Origin: a virus
Direction: 5' to 3' (one strand)
Length of the DNA: 64,000 nt
Virus record (IMG/VR): IMGVR_UViG_3300010157_000060
Coordinates: 7,672 to 71,671 of that record
The stretch's first letter is position 1; each line of letters opens with the position of its first letter. Shown here one piece after another: positions 16,558-34,672 of the stretch. Made by a program: the position numbers and the translations under genes. Under the pieces are notes generated by a model. It saw only the letters and a list, made by a program, of their open reading frames with translations, did no database searches and was not told the DNA's origin.

Positions 16558-16761
16558 ATGGCCAAGATCTTACCAACCGATGGCTTCGTGAGGAGTCCTG
16601 AGATCCCAGGAGCTATCGTCAACGTAGATAATAGTGCTCTAGAAGCGTACAAACTTCGTCGCCAAAAAGAGAAGACTAAGTTAGATGAAATAAATAGTCT
16701 TAAGCAAGAAGTGGCCGACATCAAGAGCCTATTAACACAGCTAATAGAGAAACTTAAATGA
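16558..16761 (+). CDS. Small coiled-coil protein
   Basis: 67 aa with GAIVNVD then an amphipathic helix (INSLKQEVADIKSLLTQL). Tightly packed between its neighbours. Confidence 0.7.
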   Translation: MAKILPTDGFVRSPEIPGAIVNVDNSALEAYKLRRQKEKTKLDEINSLKQEVADIKSLLTQLIEKLK

Positions 16762-19700: not shown

Positions 19701-20318
19701 ACGGGCTTCGCTAACGCTACTACTTCTCTTCAAGTTGGAACGTCAGCGACAATAGGCACTACGCTCTCTGCTGGAAACACGACCATCACTGGATTCGCTA
19801 ACGTATCTCAGGGTGTTAACGCGAACTCATTCTCGGTTGGAACTGCATTCACGGCTAACTCAACTCTCGCGAACGTCTACGCTATAAACGTACAGACCCA
19901 AGCGAACGCCGATATCTTCTACGCAGCGTCTTACGCCAACGTAGGTACCCTACTCAGGGCAAACACCTCAGCTTACTTAGTCTCAAGCAACTCGACTGTC
20001 AACGCGATACTGAACTCTACGTCGCTGACTTTCACCAACACGACCGCAACGCCGTTCGTCGCTAACGTCACCGGTCTCTACCATACTGGAACCGTCAATG
20101 CTGCATCGTACACGGTAGGTACTTCTCTTACTGCAAACGCTTCCGGTATATACATTGGAGCTAATAGCTTAGTTAATACCTCAGTGCACTTCATCGGAAA
20201 CTCTTCGGTAAATACAAATATATCAGCAAACCAGATTACACTGAATGGCGCTAACGTGATGACTACCGCAACGACGCTGAAAGTATACGACGCATCCGGT
20301 ACTCAAGTATTCCCATAA
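16758..20318 (+). CDS. Long fibre-like virion protein 1 (Asn/Thr/Ser-rich)
   Basis: 1186 aa of beta-strand repeats (GNTTITGFANV several times; ANxTGLYHTGTVNA). Shares modules with the fibres at 32159 and 35142. Confidence 0.75.
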   Translation: MTIIVANVDTTSDTYGGLITKVNQLANALANYTVTTNSNTAAGNAAVGNALTANVLYANTINGGNTSTSNNLGVTSNLYVVPYPGANTLVITGNSTIGQFTTTITGNVVTINPANTRISGTVLTVNTASVNVTSNTAVTGNTYLYGNSTSQSFKLTGNSTTTNVDINVTSANLNAIFDINGNTIVGANSTLTNISVSGNSTTSNVNISANDVYLTPTSNVNITSKLYVSNVVVSGNTDITGYINVSSTANVGGATTLRGTATVNGALTVSNTAALGNTTITGFANVTTTLLVGTSANVTTTLGAGNTTITGFANISSTLASGNTTVTGFANVTTTLQVGTSAQVGTTLSSGNTTISGFVNSTSSNSGSYSVGATFTANATLVNAAAINITGQVNTATLFSATSANVGANVQANTSAYLVSSNSTVNTIITATSITQANTTATPFVANSSGLYHTGTVNAGSFSVGSSDVINSTAFFFSTINSTSNGLVANATSISIGNTSVNVSIGVANLAVGTAFTANASLVNAIALNVVNQTNTATLFATTSANVGANVQANTSALFIGNSTVNSTLSAGNLNVNGAFIANNTGAYHSGTMNAASFTTTNFTANNSGVYPLSNSAGTAVGSSTKRVVISANTIDATGATTLNNTLAAGNTTVTGFANISSSLQVTGNTSLSGNLVLGSTSLPVGLQANGSYGATGQVLLSNGSATYWEYQYNMSQVVNPNTSYIFSNTTTFDTSANNNQNNPILIKSQNTASVTIQGDSAGTANSLTSGAYLRMGTKGSANLGILAFVIGAGNNGIGGAYTGTLANSFLLGTTANSTLIPPLHLGVANAVVMTITGSATVPNTGFGNTAPVDTVRAEGTFSALSSIGISNSSANALMANTTGIYHTGTVNAASYTTTNFQANNTGVYPLSNSAGVALGSTTKRFNLYANNIDFSGSLQTTGASGLGNTTITGFANVSTTLQVGTSAQIGTTLAAGNTTITGFANATTSLQVGTSATIGTTLSAGNTTITGFANVSQGVNANSFSVGTAFTANSTLANVYAINVQTQANADIFYAASYANVGTLLRANTSAYLVSSNSTVNAILNSTSLTFTNTTATPFVANVTGLYHTGTVNAASYTVGTSLTANASGIYIGANSLVNTSVHFIGNSSVNTNISANQITLNGANVMTTATTLKVYDASGTQVFP

Positions 20319-20329: not shown

Positions 20330-21439
20330 ATGGCAACTGCCCTTAAAATAAACACGGCTACATCTCCAGTCTCTCTTAAAGAAATGTCGGGAACTGAGTT
20401 TGAGTATGCTATAAACCAGATGCTCACTACGTTCGCTGGAACGCAGACCGGTGTTGGAACTCTCTCCGTTAACCCAGCTAGCACTACTGGACTAACATCA
20501 ATAGGTACATTTACTGATACGTACATCAACGCTCTTCCTGGAGCGCATCCGGTCGGTACTACTCCCCTATCAGTAACTTACACTTTCTATCAAGATCAGG
20601 GCTCTGCGGCTGAGTCGCTGACTAGGCCAGTTGAGTACTCTGCGGGTCTAAAAGAGCAAGTTGACGCTAACTTAAATGCAGACCTCGTATCAAAAGCTCT
20701 TGCTAACTTAGTAGCTACTGGTGTTGGCTTCTACTCTCTGCAGCCAACTACTCCAACTGGCGGTACTTGGGTATCGATCTCTACGATCACGAATACTCTC
20801 GACTCAGCTACGACTAATACCACGCAGCTATGGAGAAAGACGGCTCCAGCTTCTTCTCCATCTACGGTTAGGACCATAAAGCTAGACGCGACTACTACTC
20901 CGAAGTCGATCAAGGAGATGTCGGACGCTGAGATACAGACACTCACTGCTCGCCTTAGGAACCAGATAGTCTCGACAGGCATCGGCAAGTACTCAGTTCA
21001 AGCTACCGCTCCAGCATCAGGTGGAACTTGGGTATCGTCAGGTACGGCCTTCTTAGACACTCGCAGGACAGCGACCGATACAGCGTACGTTCTCAACTAC
21101 ACCAAAGATTATACGGGCGCTTATACTAGAAACTACACCGGCGCTTATACTAGAACTTATACCGGCGTATATAGCAAGACGTTTACTGGCTCTTATAGCG
21201 GATCTTATCAAGCATCGTATAACGGATACTTTGGTGGCGTCACGCGATCGGGCTCTTACTTGGGTAACTATCTTCTGAGCTATACTGGAGCTTATAACGC
21301 TCTTGCTTACACCGGTGTGTACTCAGGACTAGTTAGCTTAACTTACAGTAAAGCTTATAGCACGAGCTTCTCTGGACAGACGTTAAATAGTGACAGCCCA
21401 ACAATTTCAACAGTCTACTTATGGGTAAGGACCGCTTAA
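20330..21439 (+). CDS. Putative virion structural protein with a Tyr-periodic repeat
   Basis: Internal duplication (SLKEMS / SIKEMS; GGTWVS twice) and a YTGAYTRN-type four-residue periodic tract. Confidence 0.65.
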   Translation: MATALKINTATSPVSLKEMSGTEFEYAINQMLTTFAGTQTGVGTLSVNPASTTGLTSIGTFTDTYINALPGAHPVGTTPLSVTYTFYQDQGSAAESLTRPVEYSAGLKEQVDANLNADLVSKALANLVATGVGFYSLQPTTPTGGTWVSISTITNTLDSATTNTTQLWRKTAPASSPSTVRTIKLDATTTPKSIKEMSDAEIQTLTARLRNQIVSTGIGKYSVQATAPASGGTWVSSGTAFLDTRRTATDTAYVLNYTKDYTGAYTRNYTGAYTRTYTGVYSKTFTGSYSGSYQASYNGYFGGVTRSGSYLGNYLLSYTGAYNALAYTGVYSGLVSLTYSKAYSTSFSGQTLNSDSPTISTVYLWVRTA

Positions 21440-21440
21440 T

Positions 21441-21893
21441 ATGGCAAGACAGATCATCAATCCTAGATGGGCGAATGATAAGAAGACGCACATCTTAGCA
21501 ACATTCAGGTACGATGACGGTAGGGAGATGGCCGCGTCGATAACTAACGTCGGCGATATCCAGAATCCTGATTGGAAAGAGATCATCGAGACGTTTGGAA
21601 CTGAGTACTTAGATAAAGCAGCAGATGACGCCCTAGCAGATCACATGCGCAGGAAGCAAGAGAGAGCTGAGCAGCAGAAGATAAACATAGAGAGGGCTGC
21701 TAAAGAAGCCCTATTCAACGTTAAAGCTGAGGCTTTTGATATGGACATCGTGAAGAACTCAAAGAACCGCGACATAAAGAACAAGATCCGCAGGGCGAGC
21801 ACGATGACCGAAGTGTACACCTACACTGCGCTTCTCCACATGCTAGAAGATCCTCTCGCTAATACGGACAACACAGCTTCAGCAAATACGTGA
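21441..21893 (+). CDS. Hypothetical protein
   Basis: 150-aa ORF tightly packed in the operon; charged helical C-terminal half. Confidence 0.65.
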   Translation: MARQIINPRWANDKKTHILATFRYDDGREMAASITNVGDIQNPDWKEIIETFGTEYLDKAADDALADHMRRKQERAEQQKINIERAAKEALFNVKAEAFDMDIVKNSKNRDIKNKIRRASTMTEVYTYTALLHMLEDPLANTDNTASANT

Positions 21894-21896
21894 TAT

Positions 21897-22661
21897 ATGA
21901 ATTGTGGTTATGTGTACGTTGCTTCGTGCAACAGTGAGTTCTATAGGGCGGCGATAAACTCTGCGGTATCTCTTCGGGACTACTACCCAGAAGCTAAGAT
22001 CGCACTCTTCACTCATGAGAAGTTCTTAAAAAAATCAGACGAGAAGTACTTCGATCACGTGCAGACTGGCATTCCGGTCAACGAGAGAGCGAAGATGTAC
22101 GGAATGGCGAGAACGCCGTTTGACCGCACGTTCTACATGGACTCTGATACTGAAATTAGATCTGAGAATATCAAAAAAGTGTTTGACATTCTTGGAGACT
22201 GTGATATAATGTTCACTAAGATAATACCACAAGTTTCCAAGGACGTATATATCGATGATGAAAATAACCTCCACTATCATGGTGGTGTGGTCCTCTACAA
22301 TAGCGATCCACTAACGATACAGCTGATGAGGGACTGGTACGAGTTCTACCAGTACCAGCAAAAATGCGAATGGAAAGAAAGCATATTCGCAGAGTACAGC
22401 GAGAAGATGAAACCATGGGACCAGTTCACCATGTGGTACCTTCTCTATAAGTACCCGAAGTACAGGGATATAAAGCACGACTTCTTTCCAAACGGTGGTA
22501 CTTCCTACAACTTCATATACCTGCTTGAAGAGAGAAGAGAGAAGTACAAAGACTACTACGACTTAGAGCAGATCGTCTACCACTATACTATTCCCGGAAT
22601 AAGGAAAGAAAATGCAGTCATTCTCAAGCCTCAATCCAGATCTTCTGAAGATTTTAACTGA
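21897..22661 (+). CDS. GT-A fold glycosyltransferase-like protein (GT8-like)
   Basis: GYVYVAS, SAVSLRDYYPE, TPFDRTFYMDSD (DxD), HGGVVLY, WDQFTMW. Confidence 0.75.
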   Translation: MNCGYVYVASCNSEFYRAAINSAVSLRDYYPEAKIALFTHEKFLKKSDEKYFDHVQTGIPVNERAKMYGMARTPFDRTFYMDSDTEIRSENIKKVFDILGDCDIMFTKIIPQVSKDVYIDDENNLHYHGGVVLYNSDPLTIQLMRDWYEFYQYQQKCEWKESIFAEYSEKMKPWDQFTMWYLLYKYPKYRDIKHDFFPNGGTSYNFIYLLEERREKYKDYYDLEQIVYHYTIPGIRKENAVILKPQSRSSEDFN

Positions 22662-23268
22662 GTTCAGCGACTTCTTCTACGGCCGAGACTTCTCTCACCT
22701 AGAGCCGCTGATCGGTAGCAACCCGAAGATGAAAGACGTCACGACTAAAGAGATGGGACCCACTGCGCTGAGTGATGAGTACTTGTTTGCAGGACTAGAT
22801 ACACCGCTGAAGTACGGCTTTCCTAGGCACTCTTTTGGTCTTGAGCTCCACTACGACAGGAAGTACATTCAGGACACGGAGCTTCTTGACCAGTGCCATA
22901 AGACCAACGATGAGCTCATGACGTTCTTTGGAGCTAGGAACAGCGCATTGCAGATGTTCTACCCGTCAGGCGGCTACATAGGATGGCACAACAACTGCAA
23001 CGCTGCTGGGTACAACATCATACTGTCATGTAACCCCGGCGGAGATGGGTACTTCAAGCACTACGATCACGTCAATAAGGTGTTCAACAACTTCCCTGAC
23101 CAGAGAGGTTGGAACTGCAAAGTCGGGTACTTTGGTTCTGACAAAGAGCCGGAGAAGATCTTCTGGCACTGCGCAGGAACTAACACACCTCGATTAACTT
23201 TCAGCTACATCATCTACGATGAGAACATCTGGAAAGACATGATCGACGACATCAACTACGATGGTTAA
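22612..23268 (+). CDS. Cupin/2OG-Fe(II) oxygenase-like protein
   Basis: YPSGGYIGWHNN and FWHCAGTNTPRLTFSY; has HxN where HxD is expected. Confidence 0.55.
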   Translation: MQSFSSLNPDLLKILTEFSDFFYGRDFSHLEPLIGSNPKMKDVTTKEMGPTALSDEYLFAGLDTPLKYGFPRHSFGLELHYDRKYIQDTELLDQCHKTNDELMTFFGARNSALQMFYPSGGYIGWHNNCNAAGYNIILSCNPGGDGYFKHYDHVNKVFNNFPDQRGWNCKVGYFGSDKEPEKIFWHCAGTNTPRLTFSYIIYDENIWKDMIDDINYDG

Positions 23269-23974
23269 CTTCATATGCTTAAAGTGGGGAGATAAGTATG
23301 GACCCGAGTACGTCAATAGGCTATACAGGTCTATTCGGAGATATTATGACGGATGTTGTAGCTTTTATTGCTATACCGATTCTGGCTTGGACCTTGATAA
23401 CGAAATAGAGATCAGGGACATCTCTGTTCTAAGAAGAGAAAACTATAAGTGCTTTACTGTCGAGAAGATCTTCTTATTTGACTCAGGGGTCATCAGCGGT
23501 AAGTGCGTTCTCTTAGATCTGGACGTCTTGATCTTAGATAGCTTAACTGAGTACTTAGATGAGTACGACTTCTCTGAGCCTAGGTTCACGCTTAGCCACA
23601 AGCCTAACCAGAACTACCCACTATTTGCGGACTTGTTCTTCCAGTCCGGTCCTAACTACGTTAACAGCTCATTTGTTACTTGGAGAGATGGACAGCTCGA
23701 CTGGCTCAGGGAGTTCTTCATGGAGAACAGGGAGATCATCGAGTACAAGTACTTAGACCTAGATACGGCCATATTTCAGACATGCAGGAAGAAGCTTCGC
23801 TTTCATCCGCAGAGTATCATATACTCATATAATGCTTACAGGGAGAAGCTCAACTCCAAGATCACGTACTTCAATACCTCACATGGTCGAGGTCAAGAGC
23901 TGCACGAAGGCCCGCAGTGGGCTACAGACCTATGGAGGGGTCATGATAGTGAATCAGCACTCGGAGGTCGCTGA
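23261..23974 (+). CDS. Glycosyltransferase-like protein, paralog A
   Basis: ICLKWGDKYGPEYVNRL, FYCYTD, LLDLD (DxD), VNSSFVTW. Confidence 0.75.
   Translation: MVNFICLKWGDKYGPEYVNRLYRSIRRYYDGCCSFYCYTDSGLDLDNEIEIRDISVLRRENYKCFTVEKIFLFDSGVISGKCVLLDLDVLILDSLTEYLDEYDFSEPRFTLSHKPNQNYPLFADLFFQSGPNYVNSSFVTWRDGQLDWLREFFMENREIIEYKYLDLDTAIFQTCRKKLRFHPQSIIYSYNAYREKLNSKITYFNTSHGRGQELHEGPQWATDLWRGHDSESALGGR
23656..23687 (+). repeat. 32-bp direct repeat, copy 1 (copy 2 at 24918-24949)
   Basis: ctacgttaacagctcatttgttacttggagag is identical in GT paralogs A and C. Confidence 0.9.
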
Positions 23975-24551
23975 CCCTTCGCTGCTTCATGCTGGCGCTG
24001 TCTATCATATGAGAGAAGTACCTTATCTTGCCGTACTTGTTGATGAACGTGTCATCGCCGTAGTGCTCAGACGTGTGCTTGAAGACGTCGCTGAGTAGCA
24101 TCTCAGCTAAGAAAGCGTGCGACTTTCCTATCCACCCCATCACCGAGCTGTTTCCGTAGCAGAAGAACCTAGGATCGCGATCACTCATGTCCTTAGGCTT
24201 CCATAGAGTATCAACTAGAGTTACACTTTCTGTGTCGATATCATCTAAAAGAAACTCCAGTTTACCAAGTATGTTGACATCTAGGTCAAAGTACAAGTTA
24301 GTGCAATCATGATTGCACTTCTCAAATATGAGAATTTTATTCCACCAAGTGTCGAGCTCATACTCGTCTACTCTAGCGAACTGTATCGGTAAGTCAGAAG
24401 ACTCATCGCGATCAGTCAAGCATATCAACTCAAAGTCCCTGGATAAATACTTATCAATGAGTAAGTACAACCTCTCGACGTGCTCTTTGGTGTACTTTGG
24501 CTTCACGAGAACACAGTAGATCTTTATAATGGAAAAGACAGTCAAGTTCAT
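23922..24551 (-). CDS. Glycosyltransferase-like protein, paralog B (opposite strand)
   Basis: KYTKEHVERL, LICLTD, WWNKILIF, LYFDLD (DxD), GNSSVMGW, YGDDTFI. Start codon uncertain. Confidence 0.75.
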   Translation of the reverse strand: MNLTVFSIIKIYCVLVKPKYTKEHVERLYLLIDKYLSRDFELICLTDRDESSDLPIQFARVDEYELDTWWNKILIFEKCNHDCTNLYFDLDVNILGKLEFLLDDIDTESVTLVDTLWKPKDMSDRDPRFFCYGNSSVMGWIGKSHAFLAEMLLSDVFKHTSEHYGDDTFINKYGKIRYFSHMIDSASMKQRRVSDLRVLIHYHDPSIGL

Positions 24552-25248
24552 AACTCTAAAGTGGGGTACTAAGTACGGGCCTGAGTACGTGAACAGGCTC
24601 TACGATAGCATAAAGAAGACATACACGGGACCATTTGAGTTCTACTGCTTTACTGATAACAGCAGGGGTCTCAAGTGCAGGACGTACCCCATCGAGATGC
24701 TTCCTCATTTCAAGTCCAACGTATTCACTGTCTGCAAGCTAGACCTATTTAATAAGATGCCGATGGTCGGCCCGTACGTCCTGCTCGATCTCGATCTATT
24801 GATTCTCAAGGACCTCAAGCCTTACTTTAACGAGTACAATTTTGAAGAGCCTAGGATGATCTACAACTACTGGACAGATCCAGAGAGAATCTACAGGTCT
24901 TACTTTACTGGTGACTGCTACGTTAACAGCTCATTTGTTACTTGGAGAGGAGACCAGCTGAGGTGGATGTACGATAAGTTCGTTGAGAACAAAGAGATAG
25001 TCGGCTTCAGGTTCAAGACTTTCGATAAGTTCATCTTCTACAGCAGCAGAAAGAAGATCGGCTACCACCCGAGAAAAGTTGTCTACGCTTACAGCTTCGG
25101 CGCCGAGTACCCAGAGGACAGGGACATATACAAGTACAGACCTGAGTACTACATATCTATATTCAATACATCTCACAAGCAGGGAACTGAGCTGCACGAA
25201 GCCGGCGGCTGGGCTAAAGAGAAGTGGACGCAGTATGATCGGAATTAG
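24529..25248 (+). CDS. Glycosyltransferase-like protein, paralog C
   Basis: ITLKWGTKYGPEYVNRL, FYCFTD, LLDLD, VNSSFVTW, FNTSH-x-QGxELHE; clear paralog of 23261..23974. Confidence 0.75.
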   Translation: MEKTVKFITLKWGTKYGPEYVNRLYDSIKKTYTGPFEFYCFTDNSRGLKCRTYPIEMLPHFKSNVFTVCKLDLFNKMPMVGPYVLLDLDLLILKDLKPYFNEYNFEEPRMIYNYWTDPERIYRSYFTGDCYVNSSFVTWRGDQLRWMYDKFVENKEIVGFRFKTFDKFIFYSSRKKIGYHPRKVVYAYSFGAEYPEDRDIYKYRPEYYISIFNTSHKQGTELHEAGGWAKEKWTQYDRN

Positions 25249-25849
25249 AGAAGAGATAAGAAGAATACATGAGATCTTATTTGAGGACTTTCTCAAGAAG
25301 CAGCACAAGTACGTGTACAGGCTATTTGAGATACACAATGACGCTCACATCAATAACAGGAACTACTACGTCTTCGAGATCATAAAGAAGAACTTCTCAG
25401 ATCTCAAGAAAGTAGTGATCATCAACAGCAGTAACCCAATACCTCTATGTCACTTCTTCAAGTCAGAGTACGACAGCGATATTACTCTGATATCAGATCA
25501 CCCATCTTTTGAGTTCACACAGAAGTTCTTCTCTGATTTCTTTAAGACAAATAACATCATAAAGAGCGCTTTCTTTGATGATCTAAGTGATGATATCAAG
25601 GGAGCAGACCTAGTGATCTTTCCAGAGTTCGAGTACATGGTGCCACTTGACATGCTCAAGTACTACAACGAGGGCACGATGACCATGGCAGTGCACCACA
25701 TAGCGCACGTCAACGATCACAACAGCCGGATGATGATCATGACTGAGCACGACTTACTTGAAGAGTGCAACTTCGACGAGGTGATAGACTCAGGGAGGAC
25801 CAAGAACTCCGATGGCAGAAATATATTCTACTCTTTGGGAATTCGGTAA
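25235..25849 (+). CDS. Hypothetical protein, possibly a degenerate Rossmann/methyltransferase-like fold
   Basis: Likely start is the ATG at 25235 (MIGIREE) overlapping the previous stop. KKVVII and ADLVIF strand pattern; no GxGxG. Confidence 0.45.
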   Translation: MIGIREEIRRIHEILFEDFLKKQHKYVYRLFEIHNDAHINNRNYYVFEIIKKNFSDLKKVVIINSSNPIPLCHFFKSEYDSDITLISDHPSFEFTQKFFSDFFKTNNIIKSAFFDDLSDDIKGADLVIFPEFEYMVPLDMLKYYNEGTMTMAVHHIAHVNDHNSRMMIMTEHDLLEECNFDEVIDSGRTKNSDGRNIFYSLGIR

Positions 25850-26502
25850 CTAGGATCTGCCGCGGTCATCTGCTTCATGAGATCATCTAGCCAGTGGTGA
25901 TCTACTCTCTTAACGTACTTAGCGTTCTCATTCTCAGCTATGATATCTGACAAGGTATCATCGTTTATCCGTATAGGAAAATCAAAGGCCTTCTCAAGCT
26001 GAGATAAGTACCTACCCCTGTAGAGATACAAGAGCTCAGTCGATACGTAGATCGGATCGTACTTGTAGAGTACTCTGTCTATCTCTTTGAGTAGAGCTGG
26101 GTAAGTTATCTTCTTCCTAACTCTCATCTGCTGGTACTTGAGTATGTTCACTTCTCTCCCAATAACTCCAACTTTCACTTCAAAGCCGGCTTCAATAGCC
26201 CTGCGGATGAACATCTCGTAGTCAGGTACTTCCATTGGGAGTCCCGTCATATCTGGGCTATTTCCCTTAGTCATGTACGGGCACGAGATGCTCGTGTAGT
26301 AGTTACCATTTAAGAACTCTCCTCTCTTGAATAGGTCTGGATTTTTCCAGTAGAGGTTGAAGGTCTCTTGACCGTGCAGCACCCAGTACTCCTGCGTTAG
26401 CTCTTTCCAGCCGATAACATCTGGATGATTGCTGATGATCTTACTCCACAGGTGATTTCCAGATCCCTGCGGGCCAGTAAATATGAGAAGCTTCTTAGAC
26501 AT
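25828..26502 (-). CDS. Sulfotransferase-like / P-loop fold protein 1
   Basis: N-terminal LLIFTGPQGSGNHLWSKII-x2-HP resembles the sulfotransferase 5'-PSB loop; VGVIGRE. Confidence 0.5.
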   Translation of the reverse strand: MSKKLLIFTGPQGSGNHLWSKIISNHPDVIGWKELTQEYWVLHGQETFNLYWKNPDLFKRGEFLNGNYYTSISCPYMTKGNSPDMTGLPMEVPDYEMFIRRAIEAGFEVKVGVIGREVNILKYQQMRVRKKITYPALLKEIDRVLYKYDPIYVSTELLYLYRGRYLSQLEKAFDFPIRINDDTLSDIIAENENAKYVKRVDHHWLDDLMKQMTAADPSYRIPKE

Positions 26503-27253
26503 TCTTCACCCACTCAAAATAAAGCCGATCGTGGCTGTCCTTCTTTAATGTAGTCATAGTGCAGCCGAGATCAGCTGACATCTTGTAAGCGTACTCAAAG
26601 CTCCAAGGAAATAAGTCTATCCAGTATCCCTCTTTCCTGTTCTTTCCGGGGTTAACCCTAACGTAGATGGTACCTCCTGGAGAAGTGAGCTCAACGACCC
26701 TCTTCATCCTGACAGCTACGTCCTCATAAGATCCGAAGTTTATGCTGCCGAACACGAGAACGTGATCGTAGGTGTTGTCAGGAACTCTGAAGTCCAGCAC
26801 GTCGACCATGAAGTCTGCGCACCTGTTGTATATGTCGATTCCAACGAGGTTGTTGATCTTCCCCTTGAACTGGTTGTATCCACAGCCGACGTCTAAGACG
26901 GCTTTTGGGTCTTGAGAGTTGATCCTGTTCACGATCTCCCATCCAGTATACTGGTAGTCATCAGTTCTTGGAGTCCAAGTTCCGTTGTACTCAAAGAAGC
27001 GCTTCCTGTACTTCTCATCTATCTCATCTACTAGATCGCCCAGAGTACGGCTGAAGTCCAGCTCAAACTCATATACGTTCTCAACTGCTTCTTTGAACTT
27101 CTCTAGTCTCTTAGGAGTCCACGGCAGTGAAGAGATGATGGTCTCTCTTTGAGCATCTAAGTTCAAGTGCGCGTACTTCTGTAGTTTGAAGTAAGACTCA
27201 AGAGATTCTTTCACAAAAGCAAAAATTTTCTTATTTGTCACTTTTTTTCCCAA
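26495..27253 (-). CDS. Class I SAM-dependent methyltransferase 1 with an N-terminal extension
   Basis: VLDVGCG motif I, LVGID, YDHVLVFGSINFG, PGG; TTG start. Confidence 0.75.
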   Translation of the reverse strand: MGKKVTNKKIFAFVKESLESYFKLQKYAHLNLDAQRETIISSLPWTPKRLEKFKEAVENVYEFELDFSRTLGDLVDEIDEKYRKRFFEYNGTWTPRTDDYQYTGWEIVNRINSQDPKAVLDVGCGYNQFKGKINNLVGIDIYNRCADFMVDVLDFRVPDNTYDHVLVFGSINFGSYEDVAVRMKRVVELTSPGGTIYVRVNPGKNRKEGYWIDLFPWSFEYAYKMSADLGCTMTTLKKDSHDRLYFEWVKNV

Positions 27254-27267
27254 TCAATAAGAAATTC

Positions 27268-27286
27268 ATATATATACTATATATAT
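27268..27286. promoter_or_regulatory. Palindromic AT element in the divergent intergenic region; candidate bidirectional promoter
   Basis: ATATATATA-C-TATATATAT is a perfect inverted repeat. TATATATA is one mismatch from TATAAATA and reads the same on both strands. Confidence 0.4.
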
Positions 27287-27321
27287 CATGAAGATGCTTA
27301 AATTTCTCCGGAGGAATAAAA

Positions 27322-28017
27322 ATGTCAGTAGAAGACTGGAACAAAGCCACGAGCGCGTGGGAGTACACTAAGACTAGAAGCAAGTACCACTTCGACACCC
27401 ACATTCGAGACATGAGATGGGACACGGTGATCGGTCTCGGTAAGCTTACCGGAGACTGGCAAGAAGAGCTCGCGCAGCAAGTTGAAGCTTCAACGCCGGT
27501 GACCATCGCCACTCGCAGGAACCAGTGGAGGCGCGAGCACGACAAGGTAAAGCTCAATACAGCCGAGACTAACGACTTCGTAGAGGTCGGCGCAGACCCA
27601 GAGATGACCATCTTCAGGGTACAGCATGACTTATCACCTACTTTCCAGAAGATGGTAGATATGATCGGGCTAGACCATCATGAATCTAGGCTTCACGTTC
27701 AGTATCCGGGAGAAGCTTTTCTCGGTCACGTCGATCGCTTTGACTTGAACTGGCCCGGAGTTGACCCAGAGAACTTGATCCGCATCGGTGTCATGCTCAA
27801 GGACTATGAGCAGGGGCACTTCTTCCAGTTCGGCAACCACCTCTACCAGTTCTGGCGCGCCGGGGACATACACACGTTTGACTACTGGAGCGTACCACAC
27901 TATACCGCGAACAGCGGTCTATCTCCAAGAGTGACGCTGTTCACTACTGGAATTATTACTGACAAGACGCGTGAGTTCTTAAAGAGCGCGCGCCGCACGA
28001 CTGAAATACTAATCTAA
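27322..28017 (+). CDS. 2OG-Fe(II) dioxygenase-like protein (Asp/Asn beta-hydroxylase-like motif spacing)
   Basis: HVQYPGEAFLGHVD (HxD), WRAGD, PHYTANSGLSPR; strong SD GGAGGA. Confidence 0.6.
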   Translation: MSVEDWNKATSAWEYTKTRSKYHFDTHIRDMRWDTVIGLGKLTGDWQEELAQQVEASTPVTIATRRNQWRREHDKVKLNTAETNDFVEVGADPEMTIFRVQHDLSPTFQKMVDMIGLDHHESRLHVQYPGEAFLGHVDRFDLNWPGVDPENLIRIGVMLKDYEQGHFFQFGNHLYQFWRAGDIHTFDYWSVPHYTANSGLSPRVTLFTTGIITDKTREFLKSARRTTEILI

Positions 28018-28033
28018 AATCATAGGAAGTGAA

Positions 28034-29473
28034 ATGAACATTTTTCCATTATTTGACCAAACTGCGGGGTTTGCGCTCATCGCGTTCTACGCGGTGGCCG
28101 TGTTCTTCTTAACGAGCTTCTTCTCTAAGGGGTTCGACAGCAGCAAAGAGAGCTTCTTGGTAGCCAACCGAGAGATCGGTTTCTTTCAGGGAACTTTCTC
28201 TGCTGGAGCTAGCTGGATTCACGCACCGGGTCTATTTGTCGCGGCCCAGCAGGGATATAACAATGGTTGGCCGGGAGTCTTCTGGTTCAGCTTCGGTAAC
28301 TTCTTCAGCTACATCGTCTTCGCGTACTTCATCAATAAGTTCCGGAACGACAACGGTAAGATCTTTACGCTGAGTGAGTACTTCAAGGGAAAATGGGGAG
28401 GCTTCATCAGCTTCTTAGTTCTACTCCAGCTCTTGCTCTTGACTCTTCAGTCGCTGACAATTGACTTGTTTGCCGGTACTCAGAGCGTCGCTCTCTTGAC
28501 CGGAATTAACCCGATGCTGATCTCAGCTCTACTAGTAGGTATCGCGCTGACTTACTCACTTCGCGGTGGAATCAAGGCGTCGATCGTCACTGACGTGATC
28601 AAGATCCTCATGATCTTCGTGGGCGTAGCAGTCGTCGGCTATACGGTGTACAGCACGACTGGAGTACAGCCTATCATCGATGGTATGGCCGGTAAGTCTG
28701 GAAAGGGAACATCTCTTTGGAGTGACAGCTTCGCTCTTGGCCTTCTCTTCGGCTTTGGTATACCTACGGTCATCGGTCACTTTGCCTCAGCTTGGACGAC
28801 CAATGAAGGGTACCAGAACGCCTTCGCTATGAAGCCGAACGTTGCACTCTGGGCGTACATCGCAGCTCCGTTCTGCTGGTTAGTTCTCCAGCTCATCGGT
28901 GGACCTCTCGGTATGATCGCTGCCGGCTTGCACATCGATGCTGGAACTAAGTCCGGCTTCGTCAACTTGATGGTTATGGCTCAAGTCGTTGGTCCATGGC
29001 TAGTGCTGGTGTTCTTGATGACGGTCTTCGCCGGCCTCATCAGCATCATCGACACGATGCTCATCAACAGCGCCAACATGGTGGGAAGTGACTTCCACGA
29101 CTACTTCAAGGGAAAGAACCCAGTTCTCTGGAGTCGAGTAGCCATGATCGTCTTCGCTGCGATCGGTATCTTACTCGCTAACATTCCGGGGCTAGATCTA
29201 AACACGATCTTCCTCTTCGGAAAGACGTTCCAGTTATGCTTCTTCATTCCAGTAGTGATAGGAGTAGTCGCTCCTCACTTCCTCACTAAGTGGGGATTCA
29301 TCTCAGGAGCGGCAGTTGGTTCTCTCGTTGGCTCTCCTCTCTATGTTTACGGGCTTCTCTTCGGCGGTGGTCCTAACATCCAAGTTACTGGAACTCTGAT
29401 CCAAGTATTTGGTGCTGGTATCGTATGCTACGTAGTTAGTAAGTACACAGCAAAGAGAGAAGCGATTGCATGA
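28034..29473 (+). CDS. Sodium:solute symporter (SSS) family transporter
   Basis: 479 aa, polytopic membrane protein. ESFLVANR, ASWIHAP, TLSEYF, YSLRGGIKASIVTDVI and SIIDTML are SSS motifs. Confidence 0.85.
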   Translation: MNIFPLFDQTAGFALIAFYAVAVFFLTSFFSKGFDSSKESFLVANREIGFFQGTFSAGASWIHAPGLFVAAQQGYNNGWPGVFWFSFGNFFSYIVFAYFINKFRNDNGKIFTLSEYFKGKWGGFISFLVLLQLLLLTLQSLTIDLFAGTQSVALLTGINPMLISALLVGIALTYSLRGGIKASIVTDVIKILMIFVGVAVVGYTVYSTTGVQPIIDGMAGKSGKGTSLWSDSFALGLLFGFGIPTVIGHFASAWTTNEGYQNAFAMKPNVALWAYIAAPFCWLVLQLIGGPLGMIAAGLHIDAGTKSGFVNLMVMAQVVGPWLVLVFLMTVFAGLISIIDTMLINSANMVGSDFHDYFKGKNPVLWSRVAMIVFAAIGILLANIPGLDLNTIFLFGKTFQLCFFIPVVIGVVAPHFLTKWGFISGAAVGSLVGSPLYVYGLLFGGGPNIQVTGTLIQVFGAGIVCYVVSKYTAKREAIA

Positions 29474-29931
29474 AGAAGATACTAATCTTCGGGCTGCCAG
29501 GGTCGGGTAAGACGACTCTGGCGAGAGCTCTAGTTCCTAGACTGAGAGCCGTTCACTGGAACGCAGATTCAGTCAGGGCTAACATAAACACCCATCTCGG
29601 TTTCTCTGAGAGTGACAGAGAAGAGCAAGCTAGGAGAATGGGCTGGCTATGCGATCAGGTAGTTAAATCAGGGAACTACGCGATCGCGGACTTCGTCTGC
29701 CCAACTAAAGCAACTCGTGATATATTTGGACCGTGCTATAAGATATGGATGAACACCATAGATGAGAGCCGCTTTGAGGACACGAACAAGATGTTCGAGG
29801 TACCTAAGCACGATGGCTTCGACCTGTGCATTAATAAGTGGAACGCTGAGTTCTGGGCTAAGTACATAGCAGAAGAGCTAGACTACATAGAGAAACCTAC
29901 ATTCGTGAAAACACTATTGAGGAACTTATAA
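29470..29931 (+). CDS. Adenylylsulfate (APS) kinase-like P-loop kinase
   Basis: ILIFGLPGSGKTTLA, NADSVR, LGFSESDREEQARR, DFVCP, FEVP; CysC-like but short. Confidence 0.75.
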   Translation: MKKILIFGLPGSGKTTLARALVPRLRAVHWNADSVRANINTHLGFSESDREEQARRMGWLCDQVVKSGNYAIADFVCPTKATRDIFGPCYKIWMNTIDESRFEDTNKMFEVPKHDGFDLCINKWNAEFWAKYIAEELDYIEKPTFVKTLLRNL

Positions 29932-29932
29932 G

Positions 29933-30295
29933 ATGTTTGATTGGAAGAAACCAACTGTGCAGCTTCTGGGAAGGTACCAGCCGTGGCATCCGGGACACAC
30001 TGAGCTCTTTAAGAGAGCGCACGCGAAAACAGGTCAGGTCTGCATCATGGTGCGTGACACGCAGGGCACTGACGAGAAGAACCCGTTTGATCTCTTCGCT
30101 GTAGCGAATTACATTAAAGAAGCACTCGGTAAAGAGGGCTTTGAGAGCGGAGTCGACTACGTTATCGTGGATGTTCCAAACATCGTGAACATCACCTACG
30201 GCCGTGATGTTGGATACACCATCGAGAAAGAGGACTTTGACAAAGAGATCCTCAAGATCTCAGCCACTCAGATCCGCAAAGAGATGGGCTTGTGA
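29933..30295 (+). CDS. Stand-alone HxGH nucleotidyltransferase (cytidylyltransferase-like)
   Basis: LGRYQPWHPGH and C-terminal ISATQIR. Confidence 0.8.
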   Translation: MFDWKKPTVQLLGRYQPWHPGHTELFKRAHAKTGQVCIMVRDTQGTDEKNPFDLFAVANYIKEALGKEGFESGVDYVIVDVPNIVNITYGRDVGYTIEKEDFDKEILKISATQIRKEMGL

Positions 30296-30942
30296 GCTAC
30301 ATATTCTTTGCTGGAGCTCCAGGATCAGCTTGGAGTAAAGTAGCTAAGAGCATATACTACTCACACGGCGTTGACCAAAGTGACTACTCAGATGATAGGA
30401 CGTATCACTTCTCCGATGGAGATGGAAAAGATCTGGACCACATCGGTAGCTACTTTGGTCCCGGAATGGAGTTTGGAAACTTATTTGATACTAACTTATC
30501 TAGGTACGACAAGAGAACTCTTGAGAGTGAGTTCAACGCCCCGTTCTCTGGAACGGGCTGGAGAATCATAAAGAGCCACTGCTTTTCTGATAACATAGAG
30601 TTCTTGAGATCTACTTGGCCAAAATCTCCGGTAGTCATATCTCTTAGGTCAGATGAGGACTGCCTCTACTGGTGGAAGTACGTTGGGCACTTTAATATCC
30701 CGTACCCGAGCTACGATTACTTTAGAGTTGAGAATGACGATCATCTATATACTAAGAGCTTGAATAACATATACGACTATATCAAGAAGAATAATAGAAA
30801 TATAGAGAAGTCACTTCTCAAGATTGGGTCAGCAAAGAAGATCATAGATAATAAGCAGCTGTGCGATTATCTAGGGTTAGAGTACCCAGAGGACTACATG
30901 AACTACGATCTAGAGTCAACTAACGTTTACGTGGTGAGATGA
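30292..30942 (+). CDS. Sulfotransferase-like / P-loop fold protein 2
   Basis: YIFFAGAPGSAWS, IIKSH, WPKSPVVISLR match the sulfotransferase layout; GTG start overlapping the previous stop. Confidence 0.5.
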   Translation: MSYIFFAGAPGSAWSKVAKSIYYSHGVDQSDYSDDRTYHFSDGDGKDLDHIGSYFGPGMEFGNLFDTNLSRYDKRTLESEFNAPFSGTGWRIIKSHCFSDNIEFLRSTWPKSPVVISLRSDEDCLYWWKYVGHFNIPYPSYDYFRVENDDHLYTKSLNNIYDYIKKNNRNIEKSLLKIGSAKKIIDNKQLCDYLGLEYPEDYMNYDLESTNVYVVR

Positions 30943-31559
30943 TGAAGATATTTGAATTAATGAAAACGGAGCCAGATGAAGTTCTCTGGGAGTTCGCCAA
31001 TGATGTTCATACGGCTATAGTTGACCTGTATTTCAGCAAGTACTGGATAAGCAGGTCTTACACATTTGAGCAGACCGGAGATGCTCTTATTAAAAAAGTA
31101 AATGATCTCAATCCGGAGTCAGTACTTGACGCCGGATGCGGTACCAACTACTTCAAGGGAAAGATCCAGAACTTAATTGGAATAGATCCCTTCAGCGATG
31201 CAGCTGACGTAAAGCAGGACTTCAGTGAGTACTATCTATCCAACCCCGGAAAGCAGTTCGATGTAGTTCTAGCACTCGGGTCTGTGAACTTTGGTCTCAG
31301 GGACAAGATACTATTTGAAGTGGACTTATTAGATAAGATGACGAAGTCGGGCGGTCATCAGTTCTGGAGAGTAAATGCCGGTAGGGCTGATCACGATTGC
31401 GATCACTTTCCGCTAGCGAACTTAATTGACTTCTACCCATGGAATAAGGACTTCGTAGAAGAGATAGCTAAGATCTACAACTACGAGATCCTCGAGTTCG
31501 GCTTTGAGCGCAACATTACTGATCATGAGAGGGTGTACTTCACTTTTTATAAATACTAA
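30939..31559 (+). CDS. Class I SAM-dependent methyltransferase 2
   Basis: VLDAGCG, LIGIDP, FDVVLALGSVNFG; paralog of 26495..27253. Confidence 0.75.
   Translation: MMKIFELMKTEPDEVLWEFANDVHTAIVDLYFSKYWISRSYTFEQTGDALIKKVNDLNPESVLDAGCGTNYFKGKIQNLIGIDPFSDAADVKQDFSEYYLSNPGKQFDVVLALGSVNFGLRDKILFEVDLLDKMTKSGGHQFWRVNAGRADHDCDHFPLANLIDFYPWNKDFVEEIAKIYNYEILEFGFERNITDHERVYFTFYKY
31548..31555 (+). promoter_or_regulatory. T4-type late promoter
   Basis: TATAAATA just before the second fibre cluster. Confidence 0.7.
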
Positions 31560-31577: not shown

Positions 31578-31904
31578 ATGGCCCAGAAGATCAATCTAGT
31601 CATCGATCAAGGTACTACGTTCTATACTACTTTCATCATCAATGACGACGCCGGCGTTCCGATAAACTTCACTAGTTATAACGGAACTGCGATGATGCGC
31701 AAGCACTACACCTCAACGAACGCCACCTCATTCACCGTGACAGCCAACAGCACTGGTGGAGTAAGCTTATCGATGAACTCAAACACTACCTCCAGCTTAG
31801 TGGCTGGAAGGTACGTATACGACGTTGAGCTCGTAGCTCCAGCGAACACGACATCTCGAGTAGTTGAGGGTATAGTCACCGTAACACCTCAGGTGACTAG
31901 ATAA
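31578..31904 (+). CDS. Small virion structural/adaptor protein (BppU N-terminal-like Ig fold)
   Basis: INLVIDQGTTF, GRYVYDVEL, RVVEGIVTVTPQVT. Confidence 0.65.
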   Translation: MAQKINLVIDQGTTFYTTFIINDDAGVPINFTSYNGTAMMRKHYTSTNATSFTVTANSTGGVSLSMNSNTTSSLVAGRYVYDVELVAPANTTSRVVEGIVTVTPQVTR

Positions 31905-32158: not shown

Positions 32159-34672
32159 ATGTCAAATCTTATTCAGATAAAGAGATCTCTGAATACTGCC
32201 GCCCCTACATCATTAGCTAACGGTGAACTTGCCTATACTGCGAACGGTGATACCCTCGCTATAGGATCTAACGGTAGTATAGTATACATCGGAGGTAAGA
32301 GAAACCCCGGTGTCCTAACAGCGAATCAGGCGCTAGTCGCCAACTCAAGTAGCGCGATCGACAAGATCAACGTCGCTAACTTAGTTCCAACTTACATCTA
32401 CGCCAACGGTGCTTTTGGTACTGCTAACCAGTTCCTGACTGCCAACTCAACGGGCGGAGTCTACTGGTTAACTCCAGCTCCTTCTGTTACCGGCTCTAAT
32501 ACGCAGATCCAGTTCAACGACTCTGGAACTCTTAACGCTTCGGCTGGATTCATATTCAATAAGTCTACTAACACGGTCACTGTGTCGAACAACATGGTCG
32601 TTCTCCAGAAGCTCAACGTCGGCAACGCTGCCGGTTTCGACTTTGGAGCGACTGCCGCAATCGAGATCGACGGTAGCACCAACAGCTACATGCAGTCCAT
32701 TATCCAGAACGCGAACACCGGAAATAACGCGTCGTCTGACTTGGTCATAACCGCCGACACCGGCAACGACTCAGTTAACTTTGTCGACTTCGGTATCAAC
32801 AGCTCAACTTACGCCAACGCTCTGTTCAATATAACTGGAGCTCTCGATGCCTACCTCTACACATCTGACAGCCACCTAGCTATCGGTACGGCATCTGCTA
32901 CAAAAGAGCTCATATTCCACGCCGGTGGAACGACCTCAACTGACAGGAAGCTCACTGTTAACGCCTCATCGGTCAAGGTCAATACCTCTATTCAGTTCTT
33001 GGTGGGCGGCGAGTTCATAGCTAACTCAACTGGAGCTTATCACACTGGCGTAGTGAACGCGGCAACTCACAGCTCTGGCAATGGATTTACTGCCAACTCA
33101 ACTCTGGTGAACGCGGCCGCGATCAACGTGGTCAACCAAGTCAATACGGCTACTCTCTACGCCACCACCACGGTAAACGTTGGATCTCTAGTTCAAGCCA
33201 ACACCACTGCGCTTCTGGTTGGTTCTAACTCCACCGTCAATACGGTCATAACGCCTACATCGATCACTCAGGCGAACACGACGACCACTACTATGGTGGC
33301 CAACATAACCGGCATCTACCACAGCGGTACAATAAACGCGGCATCGCATACTGTTGGTACCTCTACTATCGCTAACTCGTCCGGCGTGTACACCACTGGC
33401 ACGATCAACTCGGCTTCGTTCACAACGACCGGCGTGACCGTCAACACCACTCAGGTATCGGTTGGCGCTAACTCATACATGAACGCGACAACGTACTTCG
33501 TTGGTAACTCCACTGTCAACACGAACATCTCGGCTGGCAGCATTGTCGTCAACGGCGCGATCACGGCTAACAACACCGGCGTATCACCGGCATCTAATAC
33601 TACCGGCACTGCGCTTGGTTCTGCTACAGCTAGGTTCGTTATCAACGCGAACACGATCAACGCTTCTGGCCTAATAACTGGAACAGCAGGCGCGGATATA
33701 ACAGGTACGGCCAACGCGTCGACGTCGATGTACGTTGGAGCTAACGTCTACTCAAATACGACAGCTAAGGCCGTTGGTAACTCTACCGTCAACGCGTACT
33801 TCACGTCATCTCTGTTCAGCGTAACGAACTCGACTTCTTCTGCTAACTTGCAGGCGGGCGTATTGACAATAGGAACGTCGGTGGTCAACACCACGGCGAT
33901 CGCAGTCGGTGATCTAGTAGTCAATGGTAACACGATAATCGGGTCTAATACGCAGGATATCGTAACTCTGAACGCTCTGGTCAACACCGCGATCATGCCT
34001 AACGCGAACGCGACGTACAACCTCGGTAACACCTCAATGAGGTGGAACGAAGTTCATGCTGCCAACGTTCACTCAGTCAAAGGATACTTTGATGGCGACG
34101 TTCAGATCTCCGGTAACTTAGTCGTTCTCGGTACTTCGGTGACGATCAACGTCTCCTCGGTCTCAGTTACCGACTCACTCCTAGAGCTGGCATCGAACAA
34201 CAACACGAACGACTTGATAGATATTGGTCTATTTGGTCACTACGAGTCCGGTCTAGCTCCAAATGAGCACGCAGGATTCTTCAGGGACGCATCTGACAAC
34301 GGTATATTCAAGTTCTTCCAAGGACTAACTGAACAGCCAACGACTACGGTAAACACCGCAGCCGCATCTTACTCTCAGGCTACAGTTCAAGCTTACTTGC
34401 TAGCGAGCGCCCTGATAGCCAACTCGACTGTCACCAACATAACAGCTAACAGCACGGTCTCAGTCGGCATCGTCGCGAATACGCTGACGCTATCTACGGC
34501 GCTCTCTGGTATATACGGTGGTACTGGCTTAACGACGTACACGCAAGAAGATATACTCGTAGCGAACAGCACTAACGGATTCAGGAAGCTATCACTTGGA
34601 TCCGACGGCTACGTTCTCCAGTCAAATGGAACTGCGCTCGTATACAACACACTTGATGGTGGATCTTTCTAA
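32159..34672 (+). CDS. Long fibre-like virion protein 2
   Basis: N-terminal IQIKRS...SLANGELAY head seen on phage fibres; GSNTQIQFND; YNLGNTSMRW; ends LDGGSF. Confidence 0.75.
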   Translation: MSNLIQIKRSLNTAAPTSLANGELAYTANGDTLAIGSNGSIVYIGGKRNPGVLTANQALVANSSSAIDKINVANLVPTYIYANGAFGTANQFLTANSTGGVYWLTPAPSVTGSNTQIQFNDSGTLNASAGFIFNKSTNTVTVSNNMVVLQKLNVGNAAGFDFGATAAIEIDGSTNSYMQSIIQNANTGNNASSDLVITADTGNDSVNFVDFGINSSTYANALFNITGALDAYLYTSDSHLAIGTASATKELIFHAGGTTSTDRKLTVNASSVKVNTSIQFLVGGEFIANSTGAYHTGVVNAATHSSGNGFTANSTLVNAAAINVVNQVNTATLYATTTVNVGSLVQANTTALLVGSNSTVNTVITPTSITQANTTTTTMVANITGIYHSGTINAASHTVGTSTIANSSGVYTTGTINSASFTTTGVTVNTTQVSVGANSYMNATTYFVGNSTVNTNISAGSIVVNGAITANNTGVSPASNTTGTALGSATARFVINANTINASGLITGTAGADITGTANASTSMYVGANVYSNTTAKAVGNSTVNAYFTSSLFSVTNSTSSANLQAGVLTIGTSVVNTTAIAVGDLVVNGNTIIGSNTQDIVTLNALVNTAIMPNANATYNLGNTSMRWNEVHAANVHSVKGYFDGDVQISGNLVVLGTSVTINVSSVSVTDSLLELASNNNTNDLIDIGLFGHYESGLAPNEHAGFFRDASDNGIFKFFQGLTEQPTTTVNTAAASYSQATVQAYLLASALIANSTVTNITANSTVSVGIVANTLTLSTALSGIYGGTGLTTYTQEDILVANSTNGFRKLSLGSDGYVLQSNGTALVYNTLDGGSF

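Follow-up and report, generated by a model that had tools for sequence, protein, structure and literature searches.

Two separately inherited sets of enzyme genes in the host recognition cluster of a freshwater T4-like phage

Introduction

What do the enzyme genes that lie among the tail fibre genes of a T4-like phage act upon, and do those that stand side by side work together? These questions are raised by positions 21897-31559 of a 64-kb window (the whole stretch of DNA analysed, which is part of the 71.7-kb viral contig IMGVR_UViG_3300010157_000060 of IMG/VR, rated 45 % complete), where 14 open reading frames (ORFs; o01 to o14) form an island of genes for transferase-like, oxygenase-like and other proteins. 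A sequence-only reading had taken the island for a single assembly line that builds a modified glycan coat on the virion. The present analysis, which covered gene content, folds, motifs, synteny and promoter motifs, leads to a different view of its organization. The 14 genes are neither one operon nor one proven pathway, and the stretch splits into two separately inherited sets. The first (set A) is a fixed unit that starts with two genes upstream of the island, gB and gC, and continues with o01, o02, one to five paralogous transferases with an Asp-x-Asp (DxD) motif (here o03, o04 and o05) and o06; the second (set B, o07 to o14) is a portable cassette.

A fixed unit and a portable cassette

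The comparison sample comprised about 150 viral contigs. The o05-type transferase as query found 196 relatives in IMG/VR, from which 66 loci were kept, while o02 as query found 187 relatives, from which 80 loci were kept; the counts were made on the 76 new loci chosen only by o02, and their denominators are those o02-selected loci that have enough flanking sequence.

The surroundings of o02 are nearly constant. Upstream, gB is present in 61 of 62 loci and gC in 61 of 66, and o01 is the adjacent gene in 63 of 70; downstream, a transferase of the o03/o04/o05 type follows within 3 kb in 61/66 loci. The order and strand of gB-gC-o01-o02 are invariant down to about 33–40 % identity, even where the transferase block, which is often inverted as a whole and holds one to five paralogues per locus, faces the other way. 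In three minimal relatives (L094, L097 and L104) the set A unit is almost the sole content between the VrlC and gp13 genes that bound the region. The transferase/oxygenase half of the island is thus tied to a neighbouring protein of the structural region far more closely than would be expected of genes that had settled in a variable island by chance.

Among GenBank phages, the first genes of the island have relatives only in Phage C48C1 (OQ984149.1, Kyanoviridae; locus L073, 141011-151054), in which a gB-like repeat protein of 3347 aa is followed by gC, o01 and o02; its gB-type domain is multiplied, with 11 matching places, and the neighbouring genes are annotated as tail fibre. A literature search found no phage paper on C48C1. 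At the nucleotide level the island had no match among GenBank phages, and in GenBank protein searches its sodium:solute symporter (SSS) family importer found one unannotated record, and o01 and gB only Phage C48C1.

Set B behaves differently. Among the 37 loci with at least 8 kb downstream of o02 it was found in 8 and was absent from 29, all of which carry set A. Sulfotransferase-like, methyltransferase and o09-like genes each occur in 8 of these loci, the SSS importer in 3 and the kinase or nucleotidyltransferase in 1, and gD, the small gene that follows the island, in 23. Loci selected by the SSS importer keep the succession o09-SSS-kinase-nucleotidyltransferase, which may continue with o13, and have o08- and o07-like genes upstream, an order held in L003-L008. 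Those members of this phage group that carry set B have it directly between set A and gD. The idea of a single assembly line is therefore not upheld, since the genes for sulfation, methylation and import form a mobile cassette of their own (8/37), which also occurs next to gp15 where a transferase block is lacking.

Position and organization of the island

The source phage is a freshwater T4-like myovirus of the Kyanoviridae type, and its island belongs to a hypervariable host recognition cluster. In pelagimyophages and cyanomyophages this cluster was described as a hypervariable part of the structural region that extends from VrlC to the neck genes (Zaragoza-Solas et al. 2020; PMC7029224). 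In the accessible part of that paper the cluster contains tail fibres and many transferases, GT8 being the commonest family, and these are read as modifiers of the host O-chain (PMC7029224). The island in the window lies at exactly this position. The accessible text does not describe a fixed gB-gC-transferase-oxygenase unit or a sulfation cassette, and the words 'sulfotransferase' and 'methyltransferase' have no occurrence in it (PMC7029224). The literature search found no paper on the gB-gC-transferase-oxygenase unit or on a phage sulfation cassette with its own supply of 3'-phosphoadenosine 5'-phosphosulfate (PAPS). The earlier statement that no pathway of this kind had been described has to be narrowed accordingly: transferase-rich islands are in print (PMC7029224), but no description of the unit itself was found.

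The assignment to the cluster follows from the location of the island and the fibres between a VrlC-like gene and gp13. PHROG scans identified a T4-like structural region with a gp5-like hub, gp25, gp6, a gp7-like protein and gp8, and a VrlC-type baseplate protein of 2051 aa (phrog_358, 10401-16556), after which the fibres and the island come. Beyond the island there are genes for lysozyme, gp13 (38832), gp14, gp15, the small terminase, a 2-oxoglutarate (2OG) oxygenase and the large terminase, further on those for the sheath, tube, portal, protease, scaffold and major head protein, and then, in the same window, those for a UvsW-like helicase, gp55, gp47/46 and a peptide deformylase. In 71 related loci no relative of the three long fibre proteins (gA, gF and gH) was found, whereas the enzymes do recur there; in this region the enzymes are thus the older and steadier component.

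The 14 ORFs fill the island with overlaps or gaps of a few bases, and each has relatives in other viral contigs, so they are genes rather than chance frames. The sequence-only reading was correct in counting 14 packed genes, which are real, conserved and mostly of the kinds it named, and in noting the 3-bp gap between the end of gC (21893) and the start of o01 (21897); the layout had to be corrected, as three genes are encoded on the minus strand (Table 1). At least five transcription units result: gB-gC-o01-o02-o03, continuing from upstream (+); o04 (-); o05-o06 (+); o08-o07 (-); and o09 to o14 (+). gB begins 11 nt past fibre 1. The 50-nt overlap of o01 and o02 is conserved, as is the o02 N-terminus encoded within it, and o06 probably starts at ATG 25235 rather than at TTG 25079.

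Table 1. Features of the island and its flanks, in window coordinates
Feature	Position	Strand	Description
Fibre 1	16758-20318		fibre protein
gB	20330..21439	+	candidate substrate or structural partner
gC	21441..21893	+	conserved 150-aa partner
o01	21897..22661	+	GT-A nucleotide-diphospho-sugar transferase, PF03407/GT8-like
Sigma-70-type promoter	22183..22210	+	perfect match (TTGACA, 16 nt, TG-n-TATAAT), inside o01
o02	22612..23268	+	2OG-oxygenase fold closest to protein prolyl hydroxylases
o03	23261..23974	+	DxD transferase-like, paralogue of o05
o04	23922..24551	-	DxD transferase-like; 5' end overlaps o05 5' end by 23 nt
o05	24529..25248	+	DxD transferase-like
o06	25235..25849	+	conserved protein with relatives in other contigs
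o07	25828..26502	-	P-loop protein (GPQGSGNH)
o08	26495..27253	-	S-adenosylmethionine (SAM)-dependent methyltransferase, paralogue of o14; motif VLDVGCG
o08/o09 spacer	27254..27321		AT-rich divergent intergenic region with two palindromic TATATATA elements
o09	27322..28017	+	2OG/Fe(II) oxygenase, canonical H136-x-D138...H193...R203
o10	28034..29473	+	SSS family importer
o11	29470..29931	+	shortened P-loop kinase, adenosine 5'-phosphosulfate (APS)-kinase-like
o12	29933..30295	+	120-aa HxGH nucleotidyltransferase (GRYQPWHPGH, YGRDVGY, ISATxIR); candidate sulfate adenylyltransferase
o13	30292..30942	+	sulfotransferase-like; invariant GAPGS-x-WS, K94-S-H96, W127-W128
o14	30939..31559	+	SAM-dependent methyltransferase; motif, and Pfam below gathering score (E ~3e-3)
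T4-type late promoter	31548..31555	+	exact TATAAATA, 23 nt before gD
gD	31578..31904	+	small protein, PHROG annotation 'L-shaped tail fiber protein assembly'; in relatives, usually the last gene of set A
Fibre 2	32159-34672		fibre protein
Fibre 3	35142-37898		fibre protein
Set A	20330-25849		gB, gC, o01, o02, DxD transferases, o06; fixed unit
Set B	25828-31559		o07-o14; portable cassette

Set A enzymes and their candidate substrate

The oxygenase at the centre of set A, o02, was modelled from a 20-sequence alignment with high confidence (mean predicted local distance difference test score, pLDDT, 93.2; predicted template modelling score, pTM, 0.88). Foldseek returned 52 PDB chains at E ≤1e-3, with low template modelling (TM) scores of 0.31–0.38, headed by the hypoxia-inducible factor prolyl hydroxylase PHD2, AlkB, the Pseudomonas putida prolyl hydroxylase and the PBCV-1 collagen prolyl hydroxylase. 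In VIA-align the best score was obtained with PHD2 (11.2; root-mean-square deviation 3.3 over 146 residues), followed by the Dictyostelium PHD (10.4), P. putida P4H (10.3), FTO (9.9), Tpa1, OGFOD1 and ALKBH7 (each 9.7) and vCPH (9.5). On account of these Foldseek and VIA-align scores the predicted structure, a double-stranded beta-helix, is assigned to the 2OG oxygenases; prolyl hydroxylases rank first, by a margin that is not wide. An invariant R194-x-T196, located eight residues past H186, may bind the C5 carboxylate of 2OG, the role of a basic residue that lies about 10 residues beyond the second His in this family, as judged by spacing only. A PDB profile search with o02 returned nothing.

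The ranking of o02 bears on one possible target of set A, the phage DNA. Its oxygenase would oxidize a base and its transferases would glycosylate the product, as in phage TET/JBP-type systems, and phage transferases that serve DNA hypermodification are indeed known (Pyle 2024, cited in the accessible part of PMC12619734). This explanation is highly improbable, given that the nearest structures of o02 are prolyl hydroxylases, that Pfam and PHROG scans of the unit revealed neither a cytosine-C5 methyltransferase nor a hydroxymethylase, and that the unit is tied to gB and gC in the structural region and not to replication genes.

The four DxD glycosyltransferase-like genes proposed from the sequence are retained on different grounds, o01 by its fold in the Atlas and o03-o05 by their motif, PHROG matches and a weak resemblance to LgtC. 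In the Atlas, o01 falls near PF03407/GT8 clusters (features 0.97; structure TM 0.72); the aligned part of the neighbour cluster at TM 0.72 reaches the bar for PF03407, and the GT-A fold is assigned to o01 only. Its D82-x-D84 is invariant in 20 sequences, and a PDB profile search with it found nothing. A PHROG family named 'glycosyltransferase' matches o04 (3.8e-10, phrog_1962) and o05 (9.1e-5). The o03/o05 profile resembles the GT8 enzyme LgtC weakly (E 0.12), and its D87-x-D89, invariant in 5 sequences, aligns to the LgtC DxD; one distant o04-like relative matches GT8 at 4e-4, below the Pfam cut-off. No similarity between o01 and o03/o05 was detected by hhalign, and none of the window's own o01, o03, o04 and o05 has any Pfam match. 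The last gene of set A, o06, once suggested to be a degenerate methyltransferase, loses that name, as 0/3 members match any family.

The family alignment of gB displays three tandem repeats, each ending in ..GGTW......LW.KTA, and a conserved C-terminus, TVYLWVRTA. The last strand is preceded by an inserted (Tyr/Phe)-(Thr/Ser)-Gly-x repeat, at about residues 251-348, whose length varies greatly. The model is confident at residues 1-250 and 349-369 and of low confidence in the repeat; as a lead from this model, the globular part built of the three tandem repeats may be beta-prism-like. Foldseek found no PDB match for gB at E ≤1e-3, and weak matches to long beta-hairpin proteins were disregarded, having been matched to the low-confidence repeat. 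We infer that gB is probably located on the virion as a host-binding element. Its neighbour gC has no match in Pfam, PHROG or NCBIfam.

The fibres had been proposed as sequon-rich targets of the transferases. In the three fibres NxS/T is indeed enriched (70 observed against 47.4 expected, 40 against 25.3 and 44 against 32.4), but so are the reversed S/TxN (z 2.5–3.4) and N[ST] (z 3.1–3.8), while [ST]N is depleted. An N-glycosylation sequon was therefore rejected in favour of a compositional pattern that places Asn and Ser/Thr at i,i+2 in both directions, and no transferase of the N-glycosyltransferase type was found.

A more plausible target lies within set A. In the proposed mechanism, where every enzymatic activity and substrate and the place of gB in the virion are inferred, o02 would hydroxylate gB as a prolyl-hydroxylase-like 2OG oxygenase, and o01, a GT8/GT77-like GT-A enzyme, would glycosylate it together with the paralogous DxD transferases, most plausibly at the (Tyr/Phe)-(Thr/Ser)-Gly-x repeat. 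Protein systems in which hydroxylation precedes glycosylation offer a precedent. Skp1 of Dictyostelium is modified by the prolyl hydroxylase PhyA and then by transferases that include a GT77 enzyme, and viral collagen hydroxylases are known from PBCV-1 (vCPH) and Mimivirus (L230). The combination of a PHD-like oxygenase with GT-A transferases in set A recalls these systems, although o02 has H-x-N in place of H-x-D, the gB repeat is devoid of proline and no sequence-level membership of o02 in the Skp1-type or viral collagen hydroxylase families was found. Another comparison is with glycogenin, which belongs to GT8 and adds glucose to a tyrosine of its own: o01 is likewise a GT8-type GT-A enzyme with a DxD motif, and gB offers a Tyr every four residues. 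The likeness of o01 to glycogenin is at the level of fold and family only, and tyrosine as the acceptor is a guess.

Transcription signals

The window contains 9 exact copies of the T4-type late motif TATAAATA, where 1.3 would be expected; all are on the plus strand, just before structural genes, and 21897-31547 has none. Late transcription is thus predicted to restart at 31548..31555, past the island. Forms with one mismatch are located before fibre 1 (16689), 87 nt before o05 (24442) and before fibre 2, fibre 3 and gp13. The late co-transcription that the sequence-only reading deduced from the 3-bp gap can hold for o01 to o03 at most, which can be read through from the late fibre operon; for the remainder late expression cannot be assumed. 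Against late co-transcription of the whole cassette speak its three minus-strand genes, its lack of an internal late motif and the sigma-70-type promoter inside o01.

Perfect sigma-70-type matches number 2 in the window against 0.04 expected, and the one inside o01 could, as predicted from its motif, drive early or middle expression of o02 and o03. This promoter requires an ATA isoleucine codon and is absent from 11 more distant o01 contigs (alignment A2). In the divergent o08/o09 spacer, TATATATA is one mismatch from the late motif and also occurs in the spacer of L011 (10696-10774), and the corresponding spacer of L007 (6680-6759) has NATAAATA on both strands. This spacer between the minus-strand methyltransferase and the plus-strand oxygenase or sulfotransferase genes may be a two-way late-type promoter, as far as its motifs indicate. 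Overall, the evidence on timing is mixed.

Set B and a putative sulfation route

Three genes of set B score above the Pfam cut-offs, and the SSS transporter, the APS-kinase-like kinase and the HxGH nucleotidyltransferase named in the sequence-only reading are all confirmed in this way. The importer o10 matches PF00474 (8.7e-14) and phrog_20720 (2.4e-60), and its relatives have generic names only. The kinase o11 belongs to PF01583 by score (4.5e-14; 53.2 bits against a cut-off of 21.1), its best match among PDB APS kinases is 5e-9, and 1d6j and 3cr7 align to it via the P-loop and the LGFS..DR..RR region; the bifunctional PAPS synthases 1x6v and 2gks are also among its matches. The alignment extends over residues 4-88 of 153 only (profile positions 5-90 of 152), and thus over neither the full-length domain nor its C-terminal lid.

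The nucleotidyltransferase o12 matches PF01467 (7.9e-5), and its best matches are nicotinamide mononucleotide adenylyltransferases (NMNAT; the archaeal ones nearest) and cytidylyltransferase-like proteins. It does not fall by sequence into a known sulfurylase family (Sat/CysD), and its role as a candidate sulfurylase is deduced from its gene neighbours alone. An HxxH motif and a GRD motif are likewise present in ATP sulfurylases, a likeness that may serve as a lead only. In phrog_10255 the kinase and nucleotidyltransferase halves are fused in one protein. The o12 family has 448 relatives in bacterial species genomes; those of SAR86, SAR116 and uncultured alphaproteobacteria are about 60 % identical, and further members occur in HIMB59-type and other marine bacteria. 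Two of 80 fetched bacterial loci (L150-L229) were read for neighbours: in L151, CysQ (TIGR01331, 287 bits, above cut-off) lies directly upstream of the nucleotidyltransferase, and L150 has, in order, a YeiH-type putative sulfate exporter (below cut-off), an APS-kinase-like gene and the nucleotidyltransferase. In this very small sample the neighbours fit PAPS metabolism.

Two sulfotransferase-like genes had been named. The name stands for o13, 4 of whose 15 relatives match Sulfotransfer_3 (PF13469, best 3e-4), the window protein itself having no match there and none in a PDB profile search, but not for o07. The best 120 of 1032 relatives of o07 contain no Pfam domain, and the only name among them beyond 'hypothetical protein' is 'predicted ABC-type ATPase'; by hhalign, o07 and o13 are alike in only 19 P-loop columns (probability 20.7 %). 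The two proposed SAM methyltransferases, o08 and o14, are supported by their motif and by Pfam matches below the cut-off (for o08, Methyltransf_23/25/11 at E ~3–5e-3). Likewise, the two proposed dioxygenases hold, o02 by its fold and o09 by an H-x-D...H...R motif in 70 relatives. In these diverse sequences H136 and D138 never vary, and at least 90 % have H193 and R203, which gives the triad and the distal Arg of the 2OG/Fe(II) oxygenases. The o09 family has 1087 representatives, and its links are limited to the Asp/Asn hydroxylase family PF05118, matched by 5 of 70 sequences, and the sulfate-ester dioxygenase AtsK (E 0.03–0.05, over 46 residues only). PF05118 also includes the lipid A hydroxylase LpxO.

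In the route that these genes suggest, o10 would import a precursor, o12 and then o11 would make APS and then PAPS, o13 would transfer the sulfate, o08 and o14 would methylate and o09 would hydroxylate; the acceptor would be the set A glycan or something else, any link between the two sets being inferred. Dedicated sets for PAPS supply and sulfotransfer are known in NodPQ-NodH and RaxPQ-RaxST. As in these and in the PAPS synthases, an APS-kinase-type kinase is coupled in set B to a candidate adenylyltransferase and a sulfotransferase-like protein; set B differs in having a 120-aa NMNAT-like candidate instead of Sat or CysDN, a kinase without the C-terminal part and an attached SSS importer.

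Alternatively, set B might serve auxiliary metabolism, as a cassette unconnected with the virion that imports an organosulfur or other compound, makes PAPS and either sulfates, methylates or hydroxylates a small molecule or host polymer or aids the sulfur supply. Its travelling alone next to gp15, its absence from 29/37 relatives that have set A, the weak AtsK likeness of o09 and the approximately 60 % identity of its nucleotidyltransferase to what looks like a housekeeping gene in SAR86, SAR116 and other marine bacteria would all agree with such a cassette. However, the AtsK match is confined to its 46 residues, and in this phage group set B sits right behind set A, before gD; the explanation is considered decidedly improbable.

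Two further genes were noted in a distant sulfation cassette, that of L007 (7445-9970), where a 358-aa gene with a weak match of the arginine-deiminase/amidinotransferase type lies between two o09-like oxygenase genes, with a Nudix gene near it.

Virion or host envelope as the target

The strongest argument that the enzymes serve gB is their conserved order with gB-gC, which persists in minimal islands and through inversion of the transferase block. This tight tie of the transferases and the oxygenase to the gB region makes protein decoration a reasonable reading, and to that extent the virion-protein decoration proposed in the sequence-only reading is retained, although its target is unproven. 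Phage transferases that decorate the phage's own structural proteins are documented in mycobacteriophages (Freeman et al. 2023, as cited in the accessible parts of PMC12619734 and PMC12801897), whose capsid and tail-tube subunits were found by measurement to carry glycans at their C-termini (PMC12619734). In contrast to those phages, the system in the window is known from genes alone, its candidate target is a putatively beta-prism-like repeat protein, its unit includes an oxygenase and its host would be of the Gram-negative type. That set A decorates gB, or a neighbouring virion protein, is proposed tentatively, as a reading with not quite an even chance of being right.

Its main competitor is the remodelling of the host envelope, in which the island enzymes would alter the lipopolysaccharide (LPS), exopolysaccharide or another surface glycan of the host during infection, for example to block superinfection or to stop progeny from adsorbing to debris, the fibre region merely tolerating insertions. 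Such islands have been read in this way in print (PMC7029224; PMC12801897), and the explanation would accord with the GT8-like similarity, with an importer that has to work in the host membrane, with the occurrence of set B away from the fibres and with PF05118, the family that includes LpxO, as the only Pfam link of o09. The timing signals point the same way, both the sigma-70-type promoter within o01 and the opposite-strand transferase blocks, which lack the exact late motif in 18/19 relatives. A fixed gB-gC-o01-o02 order in about 60 contigs would, on the other hand, be unexpected for randomly dropped cargo, as would a unit that stands almost alone between VrlC and gp13 in minimal relatives, and scans of the island revealed no flippase or polymerase and no transferase of the undecaprenyl-linked or membrane-embedded kind. 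Envelope remodelling is thus regarded as unlikely, while carrying appreciable weight.

Several observations weigh against the decoration of gB and against its extension to set B. The motif of o02 is H126-x-N128...H186, with the Asn invariant in 20 sequences, so that the H-x-D/E...H triad is lacking; the gB repeat lacks Pro and is poor in Lys; and gB is annotated as structural nowhere. In the window, o13, o03 and o01 lie below every curated Pfam cut-off, and for o07 0/5 members match Pfam and a PDB profile search gave nothing. LPS synthesis is where GT8-type enzymes are typically found, and the published account of the cluster reads them in that sense (PMC7029224). With respect to timing, among 19 distinct relatives whose opposite-strand transferase block abuts gD, the exact late motif is present at gD in 19/19 but serves the transferase block in only 1/19 (2/19 with N at the first base), and the promoter within o01 is found at the same codon positions in 8 related contigs whose proteins are 57–65 % identical. 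The sequencing runs listed for the stretch comprise 0 of RNA and 4 of DNA (from 3 studies). Finally, in L005-L008 the set B block stands beside a gp15-type gene, with neither a transferase block nor gB.

The proposals for the two sets can be joined with that for gB. A variant His-x-Asn oxygenase and a glycogenin-like transferase would prime gB at Tyr-Thr-Gly-x, the paralogues would extend the glycan and set B, where it is carried, would sulfate and methylate it; o12 would be an unrecognized ATP sulfurylase, and PAPS would be made on the spot by this 120-residue NMNAT-like enzyme, of a type common to SAR86, SAR116 and other marine bacteria. In this complete form, with all parts true at once, the scheme is improbable.

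If set A does decorate gB, virion glycosylation by phage enzymes would reach beyond the mycobacteriophages to widespread aquatic T4-like phages, and the 'LPS genes' of host recognition clusters would need to be re-read as shapers of the phage's own receptor-binding surface, with consequences for host range and adsorption. Should the kinase and the nucleotidyltransferase together produce PAPS, this would put a name to a missing enzyme of sulfate activation, one that is also common in abundant marine bacteria.

Other genes in the window

Two further genes of the structural region were noted. In the interval between the portal and the prohead protease, an ORF of 858 aa (49079-51655, +) is without a PHROG match at 1e-5. 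Between the genes for the small and the large terminase, positions 41737-42423 (+) encode another 2OG-Fe(II) oxygenase (phrog_81).

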